DNA from: an uncultured Chloroflexia bacterium
Lineage (GTDB): Bacteria; Chloroflexota; Dehalococcoidia; Dehalococcoidales; RBG-16-60-22
DNA: 64,000 nt
Assembly: GCA_963739395.1 (NCBI GenBank)
Contig: CAVUAE010000001.1
Coordinates: forward strand, 948,137-1,012,136
Direction of reading: 5' to 3'
Shown: positions 29,554 to 62,032 of the stretch, one piece after another
How the letters are laid out: the number at the start of each line of letters is the position of its first letter
Numbering within the stretch: position 1 is the stretch's first letter
Program-made: the position numbers and the translations under genes
Notes under the pieces: generated by a model
Databases searched by the model: none
What the model was told of the DNA's origin: nothing
Seen by the model: the letters and a program-made list of their open reading frames with translations, nothing else

Positions 29554-29582
29554 TTGCCAAACCTATGTGTTCGTTATATAAT
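29554..29582 (+). promoter_or_regulatory. sigma70-like promoter of zinc-ribbon gene
   Basis: TTGCCA-N17-TATAAT, about 110 nt upstream of the GTG start. Confidence 0.65.
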
Positions 29583-29644
29583 AGCGTCTAGTGGTTTTCT
29601 GTCTAGGTCGGATGCAATTGAATTTACTCTATCTTGACACAGTT

Positions 29645-29694
29645 ACGGATGGCCTTAGCTCTAACCAACTAACTTAAGAAAGGAGGTCATCCGT
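29645..29694 (+). promoter_or_regulatory. RBS/start-occluding leader hairpin (copy 1)
   Basis: ACGGATGGCC pairs with GGTCATCCGT; homologous structure at 61843-61889. Confidence 0.65.
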
Positions 29695-29986
29695 GGCTTT
29701 CGAGGATAAAACACTCACGTGTGCCGATTGCGGTGCCTCATTCACCTTTACTGCGGCTGAGCAGGAGTTTTTCCAGGGCAAGGGTTACACCAACGAACCT
29801 AAACGCTGCCCTGCCTGCCGTCAGAACAGGAAAGCCGAACGCATGGGTGGCGGTAAACCCCGCCAGATGTACCCAGCCGTTTGCGCCGAATGTCATAAAG
29901 AAACAGAAGTACCTTTTGAGCCCCGCGAAGGCAGACCGGTTTATTGTAGCGATTGTTTCAGTAAAATAAGAAATAATCGCAACTAA
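29693..29986 (+). CDS. Zinc-ribbon / CxxC-x17-CxxC domain protein
   Basis: CADCG..FTFTAAEQEFF..KG..NEPKRCPAC and CAEC...PFEP...RPVYCSDC. Confidence 0.9.
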   Translation: MAFEDKTLTCADCGASFTFTAAEQEFFQGKGYTNEPKRCPACRQNRKAERMGGGKPRQMYPAVCAECHKETEVPFEPREGRPVYCSDCFSKIRNNRN

Positions 29987-30004: not shown

Positions 30005-30048
30005 AAAAACAGGCTGGTGAGGTTAATTTTCGCCAGCCTGTTTGTTTA
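30005..30048. terminator. Bidirectional terminator
   Basis: AAACAGGCTGGTGA...TCGCCAGCCTGTTT between convergent genes. Confidence 0.75.
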
Positions 30049-60640: not shown

Positions 60641-60973
60641 TTAATTACTCTGGTAATACCTTTGCCGACTGCGGCTGGGACGATTACCATTTTTTGATGC
60701 CGAAGGCCGCTGCATGTTCCTTTCGGAAAGAGGCAGTGCTTCAATAATGTTGACAAGCTGGTCTCTGACTATTTTGCCTTCTAATCCGGCGATGGCGGCC
60801 ATACCTGCCGATTTTGATGTCATTTCTACGAAGCCATAACCGTTGGTTTTACCGCTGCCGATGTACTTATCATTCATAATGATTACCGAGGTCACTTCAC
60901 CGAAAGCCGCAAATGCTTGACGAAGCTCGTCCTCGGTGGTTTCAAACGATAGATTACCTATGTAGATATTCAT
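60641..60973 (-). CDS. RRM RNA-binding protein (second copy)
   Basis: MNIYIGNLSF (RNP2) and GYGFVEM (RNP1). Confidence 0.85.
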   Translation of the reverse strand: MNIYIGNLSFETTEDELRQAFAAFGEVTSVIIMNDKYIGSGKTNGYGFVEMTSKSAGMAAIAGLEGKIVRDQLVNIIEALPLSERNMQRPSASKNGNRPSRSRQRYYQSN

Positions 60974-61062
60974 ATCGCCGCCTTTCAACAAGTCGTGCTA
61001 GCGTTACCGATTGGCACTGCTGCGTTGGCAATAATGCGCGCAGCTACCGGCACCCGAACTGA

Positions 61063-61434
61063 CTAATATCTTCGGTCTCTGCCGCCGCCCGACCTGCCGC
61101 CTCTGCCGCCGCCCGACCTGCCGCCGCCATAGCCACGATTGTTGTAGCCGCCGCCCCTTCTATCTCCAAAGGAACCGCCGCCGCGGTTATCGGGACGTGG
61201 ACGTGATTCATTAACCACAATCGTGCGTTCTTTCAATGACTTGCCGTTTAGTCCGGCGATAGCAGCTTCGGCTTCAGCCTTGGAGCTCATCTCCACGAAA
61301 GCGAAGCCTCGGGGCCGCCCGCTGATTTTATCGGAGGGAACAGCTACGGAATCCACCTTGCCGTAGGTGCCGAATTCCGCCGCCAGTTCGTCCTCGGTGA
61401 CTTCGTAAGAAAGATTGCCCACATAGATTTTCAT
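61063..61434 (-). CDS. RRM RNA-binding protein with Gly/Arg-rich tail
   Basis: MKIYVGNLSY, RGFAFVEM, RGG repeats. Start reset to ATG 61434 after GGAGG. Confidence 0.92.
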   Translation of the reverse strand: MKIYVGNLSYEVTEDELAAEFGTYGKVDSVAVPSDKISGRPRGFAFVEMSSKAEAEAAIAGLNGKSLKERTIVVNESRPRPDNRGGGSFGDRRGGGYNNRGYGGGRSGGGRGGRSGGGRDRRY

Positions 61435-61555
61435 GATTGCCCTCCTGAAACAGGCATTAATATTACGGGACTTAAAAAGTATAGAGATAAAGTGTAGCCG
61501 GGTCACATCCGGATGGATTGCCCTAAAACCAGACGTGACCCGGGATTTGATCAGT

Positions 61556-61843
61556 TTATCTAGCTGATCGCATTTGTCGGAAACAATCGCTGCAGTAAAC
61601 TGGTTTGTCGCCACGGGGCTGGAAAGGAACTTCAGTGGCTTTGCCACACTGGGCGCAAGTGGCGGGGAACATTTGCTTTGTGCCACCACCATACCGCTCG
61701 GTCTTCCGTGACTGACGGCATTCGGGACACCGTTTGGGTTCGTTAGTGTAGCCTTTGGTCTGGAAGAATTCCTGGTCCTCGGCGCTGTGGACGAAAGTAT
61801 TACCACAATCGACGCATGTGAGGGTTTTGTCCTGAAAACTCAT
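61556..61843 (-). CDS. Zinc-ribbon / CxxC-x17-CxxC domain protein (paralog of 29693)
   Basis: CVDCG...QEFF..KG..NEPKRCPEC; CAQC...PFQP...KPVYCSDC. Confidence 0.9.
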   Translation of the reverse strand: MSFQDKTLTCVDCGNTFVHSAEDQEFFQTKGYTNEPKRCPECRQSRKTERYGGGTKQMFPATCAQCGKATEVPFQPRGDKPVYCSDCFRQMRSAR

Positions 61844-61889
61844 GGATGACCTCCTCTCTTCAATTATTAGTTAGAGTTTTGGTCATCCA
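61843..61889 (-). promoter_or_regulatory. RBS/start-occluding leader hairpin (copy 2)
   Basis: TGGATGACC pairs with GGTCATCCA on the minus strand. Confidence 0.65.
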
Positions 61890-62003
61890 ACACTTAGAAA
61901 TCCGTTTTTGAGGCTTCTTAGAAGCGTGCAATAACCTAAACCTGAACTTATACTATATTATAACACAGCATGCAAGTGGTTGTATATAAAGGGTGTTCAC
62001 TGC

Positions 62004-62032
62004 TTGACATAATTATATTTCAATGGTATAAT
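62004..62032 (+). promoter_or_regulatory. Consensus sigma70 promoter with no downstream ORF
   Basis: TTGACA-N17-TATAAT, an exact consensus match. Confidence 0.85.

Follow-up and report, generated by a model that had tools for sequence, protein, structure and literature searches.

A conserved, covarying leader RNA before zinc-ribbon genes of Dehalococcoidia, a candidate two-state translational switch

We found that two small zinc-ribbon genes in a 64,000-nucleotide (nt) stretch of DNA from an uncultured Chloroflexia bacterium (assembly GCA_963739395.1, contig CAVUAE010000001.1, positions 948,137 to 1,012,136; hereafter the window), placed by GTDB in the class Dehalococcoidia, are each preceded by a conserved, covarying cis-regulatory RNA, which forms a new RNA family, although its kind of mechanism is known. 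In these leaders the ribosome-binding site (RBS) and the start codon are sequestered by an upstream anti-RBS arm in a conserved, covarying helix, and the hairpin exceeds chance at both loci, as the same leader stands before about 150 distinct homologous genes and its stem covaries among them. The conserved element is the entire leader of about 105 nt, counted from the predicted transcription start, with the hairpin forming one half of it. We consider it likely, with a probability of roughly 0.6, that this leader works as a two-state translational switch resembling the thermoswitches of csp genes, and that its input would be temperature or the folding status of cellular RNA.

The initial annotation had proposed, for both leaders, a hairpin that pairs over the end of the Shine-Dalgarno (SD) sequence and the first base of the start codon, and this hairpin was recovered at both loci. 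In copy 1 (plus strand), ACGGATGGCC at 29645–29654 pairs with GGTCATCCGT at 29685–29694, the GGAGG of the SD lies at 29682–29686, and the GTG start of a 97-amino-acid (aa) open reading frame lies at 29693. In copy 2 (minus strand), TGGATGACC at 61889–61881 pairs with GGTCATCCA at 61851–61843, the latter position being that of the ATG of a 95-aa open reading frame. The local hairpins have predicted energies of −25.9 kcal/mol (z score −5.1) and −17.4 kcal/mol (z score −3.0), respectively, and for neither did any of 200 dinucleotide shuffles equal the native sequence. The copy 1 stem comprises 16 base pairs (bp), 29641–29656 with 29683–29698, and occludes the GAGG of the SD together with the entire start codon. 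Comparing the two copies, the change from GTG to ATG is indeed matched by a C-to-T change in the 5' arm, accompanied by a G-U pair that becomes A-U, and the words CTCTAAC..TAA..AAGA recur in each loop, all of which had been read correctly.

Covariation of this closed hairpin, anticipated from the two copies, is clear across homologs. RNAalifold gives the closed hairpin as the consensus fold. In a MAFFT alignment of 150 leaders, its 12 pairs were formed in 94.0% of cells versus 88.4 ± 0.3% in shuffles, both sides had changed in 9 of the 12 pairs (87 such cells), and none of 500 shuffles reached any of five measures. Upon sliding the partner by 1–3 columns, pairing fell to 29–54%. The pair that involves the first start-codon base occurs as U-A (99 leaders), C-G (23) and U-G (6), and the pair next to it as U-A (84), A-U (21) and C-G (11), while distant members carry several compensatory changes together (CGACGACC/GGTCGTCG, GAATGACC/GGTCATTC, GGCC/GGCC, and one A-U pair lost on both arms). 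An inner CUCU/AGAG helix was rejected as an extension of the closed hairpin: it is paired in 82% of cells, but slid registers do equally well owing to a repeated purine run.

The hairpin had been taken to stand alone, and that reading holds insofar as the structure is real, covarying and without a match in Rfam; it was incomplete in that the element is the whole leader, that the loop is complementary to the 5' end, that the genome holds further copies and that the stability of copy 1 does not fit simple melting. Across about 150 upstream regions the layout comprises −35 and −10 boxes, a 5' element, a variable middle hairpin (P2), the anti-SD arm, a sequence-conserved 'loop' and the SD arm, and in orthologs the −35/−10 boxes stand at a fixed distance from the conserved 5' element. 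Orthologs of copy 1 have GGUGGUUUUCAGUCUAGGUUAUC as this element, those of copy 2 and of copy 3, a paralog outside the window, have AGUUCAGGUUUAGGUUAUU, and the loop consensus across homologs is ..CUCUAACYAA....AAGAGAGGAGG. The predicted sigma-70 promoters of the two window loci give leaders of about 103–107 nt, in agreement with the roughly 100 nt first estimated for both genes. P2 is nearly missing in Dehalococcoides, and on the MAFFT alignment, which is too poor in this region to judge by, P2a is 59% paired with weak covariation. The parts of the two leaders are given below, where R1 denotes a covariance model built from 150 leaders and MFE the minimum free energy.

29554–29582, plus strand: predicted sigma-70 promoter of copy 1, TTGCCA-17-TATAAT (11 of 12 matches), with a probable transcription start near 29589
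29587–29701, plus strand: copy 1 leader, a full-length match to R1 (80.0 bits, E = 1e-14, model positions 1–122)
29589–29610, plus strand: 5' element of copy 1, UAGUGGUUUUCUGUCUAGGUCG, a candidate anti-anti-SD; conserved in orthologs, relative to which it has a 3-nt deletion; predicted to pair with 29650–29671 when the 3' arm is blocked
29641–29656, plus strand: anti-SD arm of copy 1, the 5' arm of the closed hairpin
29657–29682, plus strand: 'loop' of copy 1, where CUCUAACCAACUAA..AAGAAAG is conserved; in the open fold the 5' element is predicted to pair with the 5' half of this loop
29683–29698, plus strand: 3' arm of copy 1 in the 16-bp stem, with the GAGG of the SD, the spacer, the GTG (29693–29695) and 3 more nt
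61957–61986, minus strand: predicted promoter of copy 2, TATACA-18-TGtTATAAT with an extended −10 box, and a probable start near 61950
61835–61955, minus strand: copy 2 leader, a full-length match to R1 (100.9 bits, E = 5e-19)
61930–61952, minus strand: 5' element of copy 2, UAUAAGUUCAGGUUUAGGUUAUU, whose AGGUUAU mimics the SD-arm AGGUCAU; pairs with 61887–61865 (anti-SD arm and loop) in the predicted MFE fold
61891–61927, minus strand: middle hairpin P2 of copy 2, whose sequence and length vary among homologs
61843–61889, minus strand: closed hairpin of copy 2, with the anti-SD arm (61889–61881), the loop and the 3' arm (61851–61843), which ends on the A of the ATG

Copy 1 departs from its orthologs at two sites: its 5' element reads GG---TCGG where they have GGGTATCAC (29606–29610 in the window), and its anti-SD arm carries an A-to-G change at 29651, giving GGATGGCC. 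Together, the deletion and the substitution allow a shifted pairing, CUAGGUC/GGCCUUAG, possibly a local re-tuning of the switch. Just upstream of the copy 2 promoter, outside the leader, a perfect TTGACA-17-TATAAT promoter at 62004–62032 (plus strand) is directed away from it.

The leader is a family of its own within one class. About 150 distinct leaders were gathered before genes of the zf_Tbcl zinc-ribbon family, and R1 matched 101 of the 301 Dehalococcoidia genomes searched (77 of 192 genera), among them complete genomes of 1.4–1.5 Mb that an exact protein match assigns to Dehalococcoides mccartyi; in a phylum-wide search of 201 Chloroflexota genomes, the 17 with a match all belonged to Dehalococcoidia, with none from other classes. 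The window's own genome has four R1 matches, before three zf_Tbcl genes and one zf_Tbcl pseudogene. The third intact paralog, copy 3, was found outside the window by a protein search of this genome (G000:C1:484672, locus L003) and has the same upstream region. The fourth leader, also outside the window (G000 contig 2, 271518–271637; locus L173, 319–438; 92 bits), precedes a decayed zinc-ribbon pseudogene in which the ATG has become ACT, Cys codons are lost and the frame reads ACTTATTTCCAGGATAAC...; a radical-SAM/B12-type gene lies 150 nt beyond it. Each of 40 relatives within the order has 1–6 zinc-ribbon paralogs. The leader is missing from more distant zf_Tbcl paralogs (about 50–56% identity; L075, L064, L081, L124, L128, L172), a second Dehalococcoides copy among them, and hence the motif marks a subfamily and not all zf_Tbcl genes. 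Six loci (L087, L089, L091, L180, L181, L182) hold short paralogs of 52–68 aa, with an N-terminal zf_Tbcl and a Ser/Tyr/Asn-rich tail, and have the same leader upstream.

The element had been thought undescribed, and the searches bear this out with respect to Rfam and the literature covered. Among all 4227 Rfam families, which include the cspA thermoregulator, ROSE, fourU and riboswitches, a search of the whole window at gathering thresholds returned 5S rRNA and two tRNAs and nothing at the leaders, and even at E ≤ 10 the two leaders gave only chance-level matches to small nucleolar and small regulatory RNAs, far under the cut-offs. The leader is not described in the literature searched on the zf_Tbcl family or on cold shock, helicases and RNA thermometers in Dehalococcoides.

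A second, open fold is predicted to compete with the closed hairpin. In copy 2, the MFE structure is not the hairpin but a long-range fold in which GGUUAUU pairs with GGAUGACC, GGUUU with AAACU and AGUU with AACU, leaving the SD and the AUG free, with the start codon predicted to be about 77% unpaired at 37 °C. When the 3' arm was blocked in the folding, all three intact copies of the genome were predicted to adopt this open architecture, and 88% of 155 leaders formed at least 10 pairs linking their first 40 nt to the anti-SD arm and loop, with a mean of 16 such pairs versus 4.6 when the 5' part was shuffled. As expected of an anti-anti-SD, the AGGUUAUY of the 5' end resembles the SD arm AGGUCAUC, from which it differs by one base. 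The 16 pairs of the open fold were 83–86% paired in the two alignments we used, versus 28–47% when slid: on the MAFFT alignment, 83% (slid controls 31–45%), with weak covariation except at one outer pair, and on an alignment fitted to the fold, which leans towards the open fold, 85.5%, with 11 of 16 pairs changed on both sides (equalled in 2 of 500 shuffles) and a covariation score reached by none of 500 shuffles. In a motif-anchored count, the outer-helix pair occurs as A-U (63), G-C (45), G-U (13) and A.C (1), and a divergent subfamily that has GUUUG...AUCC instead of GGUUAUC keeps the pairing, with GGAU...CAAAC. When models of the closed fold, of the open fold and of no structure were compared on held-out leaders, R1 and R2 gave about equal bit scores, 10–27 bits over the sequence-only model, a comparison that is not decisive because entropy weighting differs among the models. 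The open fold explains the sequence conservation of both the 'loop' and the 5' end. This fold, in which the upstream sequence would sequester the anti-SD arm to the exclusion of the closed hairpin, is itself likely but not proven.

To compare the two folds, we enforced each in turn and took the difference in free energy, ΔΔG, as open minus closed. In 46 of 84 leaders the folds lay within 5 kcal/mol of each other at 37 °C, while in 26 of the 84, copy 1 included, the closed fold was ahead by at least 8 kcal/mol at every temperature modelled. The three intact copies of the genome spread over this range.

Copy 2: enforced-pair ΔΔG at 37 °C of −1.2 kcal/mol (open favoured); the MFE fold itself (−31.5 kcal/mol) is the open fold
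Copy 3: enforced-pair ΔΔG at 37 °C of +4.9 kcal/mol; MFE −26.7 kcal/mol (closed) versus −20.0 kcal/mol for the best alternative with the 3' arm blocked
Copy 1: enforced-pair ΔΔG at 37 °C of +18 kcal/mol; MFE −34.4 kcal/mol (closed) versus −20.8 kcal/mol for the best alternative with the 3' arm blocked

Several of our results weigh against a temperature-responsive switch between these folds. Covariation of the open fold is much below that of the closed hairpin, and on the unbiased MAFFT alignment only the number of cells paired (4 of 500 shuffles) and of cells changed on both sides (7 of 500) beat nearly all shuffles. Duplex energies of own versus swapped partners between subfamilies were uninformative, the cores being too similar. 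For the A-U/G-C outer pair, the tree of the roughly 100-aa protein gives one supported contrast and is too poorly resolved for independent events; parsimony on this unsupported tree yields 18 and 14 changes. In copy 1, the duplex between the 5' element, with its 3-nt deletion, and the anti-SD region does not outscore shuffles (z score −0.5), and the closed fold has an advantage of 18–24 kcal/mol by the enforced-pair measure and of 13.6 kcal/mol by the blocked-arm MFE. Only 61% of the balanced leaders are predicted to shift towards the open fold on cooling, and in the strongly closed class (26 of 84, copy 1 among them) the shift is towards the closed fold. Furthermore, no helicase ortholog, a gene that stands under this leader in many relatives, was found in the window's own genome.

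With these mixed equilibrium trends, a pure equilibrium thermometer is insufficient, and together with the large closed-fold advantage of copy 1 they rule it out as a sufficient account of that copy. For leaders such as copy 1, either a helper protein or a kinetic route, with the open fold arising first as the RNA is made, would be required. As we picture the two-state switch, in the closed fold the stretch from the 3' end of the SD through the spacer to the start codon (GGUCAUCCAAUG) would be held by the anti-SD arm, whose consensus is UUGGAUGACC, and binding of the 30S ribosomal subunit would be blocked. In the open fold, the first 25 nt or so of the transcript would instead pair with the anti-SD arm and with the loop's 5' half (AGGUUAUY with GAUGACC, GGUUU with AAACU, RGUU with AACY), enclosing the variable middle hairpin and leaving an A/G-rich stretch, the SD and the start codon single-stranded. 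As RNA polymerase makes the 5' partner first, the open fold should arise co-transcriptionally; later conversion from open to closed would turn translation off, and cold would slow or disfavour this conversion, as in the thermoswitches of csp genes. The paralogs would be tuned apart, with copy 2 poised open, copy 3 moderately closed and copy 1 strongly closed, and the encoded RNA-binding proteins or helicase may contribute feedback. What we observed is the sequence family and its distribution, the covariation of the closed hairpin, the gene contexts and, for the open fold, complementarity with moderate covariation; the transcription starts, the switching and its signal are inferred.

The genes behind the leaders, as far as they lie in the window, are listed here.

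29693–29986, plus strand: copy 1 gene, for a 97-aa protein with zf_Tbcl and zf_Tbcl_2 domains, probably monocistronic, with a terminator-like hairpin with a T tract at 30007–30043
61556–61843, minus strand: copy 2 gene, for a 95-aa protein with zf_Tbcl and zf_Tbcl_2 domains, the first of a cluster
61498–61543, minus strand: 15-bp intergenic hairpin without a U tract, CCGGGUCACGUCUGG ... CCGGAUGUGACCCGG, between the copy 2 gene and the first RRM gene
60644–61437, minus strand: two genes for RRM_1 RNA-binding proteins after copy 2 (61437–61063 and 60973–60644)

Both zinc-ribbon proteins score above the gathering thresholds of zf_Tbcl (PF13451) and zf_Tbcl_2 (PF23477), with 77.8/71.0 and 72.7/71.1 bits, and match TIGR04272 (CxxC-x17-CxxC) with 71 and 69.8 bits; the Cys residues of the four CxxC motifs are invariant in the alignment. 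An AlphaFold model of the zinc ribbon (mean confidence, pLDDT, 84) consists of two small beta-hairpin/helix modules, for which Foldseek returned no match in the PDB at E ≤ 0.001, and sequence searches gave no informative match to solved structures. Archaeal small proteins of the CxxC-x17-CxxC type bind zinc (PMC12704099), and that the zinc-ribbon protein might bind RNA is a guess. Copy 2 does head an RRM gene cluster, as the initial annotation had it, the two genes that follow encoding RRM_1 proteins. Between the copy 2 gene and the RRM genes no terminator was called by prediction, and the 61498–61543 hairpin, whose 3' arm, GGAUGUGACC, is similar to the GGAUGACC of the anti-SD arm, might serve in processing or stabilisation.

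Gene context in relatives extends this set to a DEAD-box helicase. Of 20 matches found by the motif first and then inspected, 18 stood before zf_Tbcl genes and two before a RhlE-like DEAD-box helicase gene, and among the 30 closest RhlE-like helicase orthologs of the class, 24 had the leader within 1.3 kb upstream. In seven of these helicase-linked cases the leader is joined straight to the helicase start, in four it lies 40–122 nt upstream, and the remaining ones belong to clusters of the order leader/zinc-ribbon/helicase or leader/zinc-ribbon/RRM/(RRM)/helicase. Relatives include the order leader/zinc-ribbon/RRM/RRM/DEAD-box helicase, of which copy 2 presents the leader/zinc-ribbon/RRM/RRM version. 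Some helicase loci with a short gap (L221, L223, L224, L225) keep remnants of the zinc-ribbon gene, namely an ATG turned into ATA, an internal stop or a 16-codon in-frame stub, which indicates that the direct fusions probably arose by loss of the zinc-ribbon gene; the MSF(E/Q) start shared by zinc-ribbon and helicase genes may have served as microhomology for such a deletion. At one locus (L212, G135:C3 129145–129510), the helicase and zinc-ribbon genes are divergent, about 110 nt apart, each with a leader of its own.

Cold induction is classic for the genes of DEAD-box helicases and RRM proteins, and the gene set suggests a role in cold or RNA-folding stress. The resemblance to cold-shock control noted at the outset is accordingly borne out in part: it gains from the zinc-ribbon/RRM/DEAD-box-helicase clusters of relatives and from helicases placed directly under the leader, but simple equilibrium melting fails for copy 1. 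Genes with a cold-shock domain number one in the window's genome and are absent from 18 of 41 relatives, a complete Dehalococcoides genome included, a context that lends weak support to a cold-response reading. A wider version, which we regard as less likely than not, would have a class-wide RNA-folding-stress regulon of zf_Tbcl, RRM and RhlE-like helicase genes, in which zf_Tbcl proteins would act as a new class of RNA chaperones in place of Csp proteins; the leader would then be more than a plain thermometer, and the open fold would be a co-transcriptional kinetic trap whose lifetime is set by temperature and by helicase or chaperone capacity, with the products feeding back and the paralogs differing in threshold.

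Part of the same evidence could be read as protein autoregulation, which is compatible with two folds. A zinc-ribbon or RRM protein would bind the AGGUUAU/AGGUCAU repeat and the CUCUAAC loop and stabilise the closed hairpin, in a negative feedback like that of ribosomal-protein leaders or of CspA on cspB/cspC, and temperature would not be the primary signal. Such a model would make sense of nucleotides in the loop and at the 5' end that are conserved beyond the needs of pairing, of the near-repeat AGGUUAUC / AGGUCAUC, which could be two sites of one protein, and of differently tuned leaders on several paralogs of one genome; the regulated products are all RNA-related or plausibly so, and in Staphylococcus aureus CspA moves csp leaders to the closed form (PMC8034633). 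However, the leader persists intact before helicase genes even after loss or decay of the zinc-ribbon gene, zf_Tbcl has no informative sequence or fold match to a solved structure that would point to RNA binding, and the complementarity of 5' end and loop, with its covarying A-U/G-C pair, is explicable by RNA–RNA pairing alone. We regard autoregulation as the primary mode of control as rather unlikely.

It is improbable that the leader does not switch at all, the hairpin being a static damper that keeps translation of abundant small proteins low, or a protector of the mRNA, and the 5' end a promoter-proximal or 5'-end stability element. Strong covariation is indeed confined to the closed hairpin, and the 26 leaders that stay closed by at least 8 kcal/mol at all modelled temperatures, copy 1 included, would suit such a device, but it leaves unexplained that in more than half of the leaders the folds lie within 5 kcal/mol, that the MFE fold of copy 2 is open, that three segments of the 5' end are complementary to the anti-SD arm and loop throughout the class, and that the outer pair alternates between A-U and G-C almost without A.C. 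A metabolite or ion riboswitch, with the leader as aptamer and the SD hairpin as expression platform, would share the mutually exclusive folds and the SD-sequestering platform typical of translational riboswitches, and zinc binding by the archaeal relatives (PMC12704099) makes a metal signal conceivable. Yet the leader shows no conserved multi-helix junction or pocket, its sole enclosed element, P2, is variable and nearly absent in Dehalococcoides, no Rfam riboswitch matches it, and the helicase/RRM gene set is not metabolic, all of which makes this reading very improbable.

If the two-state switch holds, it would constitute a well-supported, class-wide cis-regulatory RNA family in a phylum with almost no characterised RNA regulators, and one control unit would join an uncharacterised zinc-ribbon family, RRM proteins and a DEAD-box helicase. 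It would also provide a first functional lead for the PF13451/PF23477 proteins, towards RNA metabolism and cold or RNA-folding stress, and the natural series of paralogs, from open to tightly closed, would be useful for studying how two-state leaders are set. The class holds the bioremediation organisms Dehalococcoides and Dehalogenimonas, whose dechlorination in the field is limited by temperature, and for this reason a cold-response regulon, if true, would be of practical interest.

As judged by the lack of Rfam matches and of sequence similarity and by the different genes it serves, the leader belongs to none of the csp, cspA or ROSE/fourU families. ROSE and fourU elements, which control heat-shock or virulence genes, have short stems of imperfect pairing that open as the temperature rises. 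The leader resembles them in that a hairpin occludes the SD and start codon, but a heat-melting thermometer of this kind was rejected: the stems here are 9–16 near-perfect pairs of −17 to −26 kcal/mol, the GGAUGACC anti-SD arm is not of the U-rich type, the stems would not melt at physiological temperature, and a competing upstream partner exists. Cyanobacteria have cold-induced rbp (RRM) genes with conserved 5' untranslated regions (5'UTRs) and an autoregulated DEAD-box helicase gene, crhR. This system, which offers a lead and no test, would share with ours a cold-responsive set of RRM and DEAD-box helicase genes, control through the 5'UTR and a lineage in which Csp proteins are not the main players; sequences and phylum differ and the cyanobacterial system has no zinc-ribbon partner.

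The predicted topology is related to that of cold thermometers in Escherichia coli, namely the cspA mRNA, reportedly described as a thermosensor by Giuliodori and colleagues in 2010, and those of cspG, cspI, cpxP and lpxP, some of which (lpxP) depend on a chaperone (PMC13271884). In these, alternative folds of the whole leader set the accessibility of SD and start codon, with a cold form presumed to arise during transcription. The cspA leader exceeds ours in length and lacks a single long SD/AUG hairpin, and the Rfam cspA model does not match here. In S. aureus, experiments have shown the 5'UTRs of cspB and cspC to be thermoswitches in which a long hairpin holds the anti-RBS in the open O form, the RBS is locked in the L form, and CspA favours L (Catalan-Moreno et al. 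2021, PMC8034633). Our leader differs from these in sequence and Rfam kinship, in phylum (Chloroflexota), in serving zf_Tbcl, RRM and DEAD-box helicase genes instead of csp genes, and in predicted energies that are not uniformly cold-ON. It shares with them a length of about 100 nt, paralogous copies within a genome, a closed form that pairs anti-RBS with RBS, a predicted open form in which upstream sequence would take up the anti-RBS, products that are small (here putative) nucleic-acid-binding proteins, and the possibility of feedback by these proteins.

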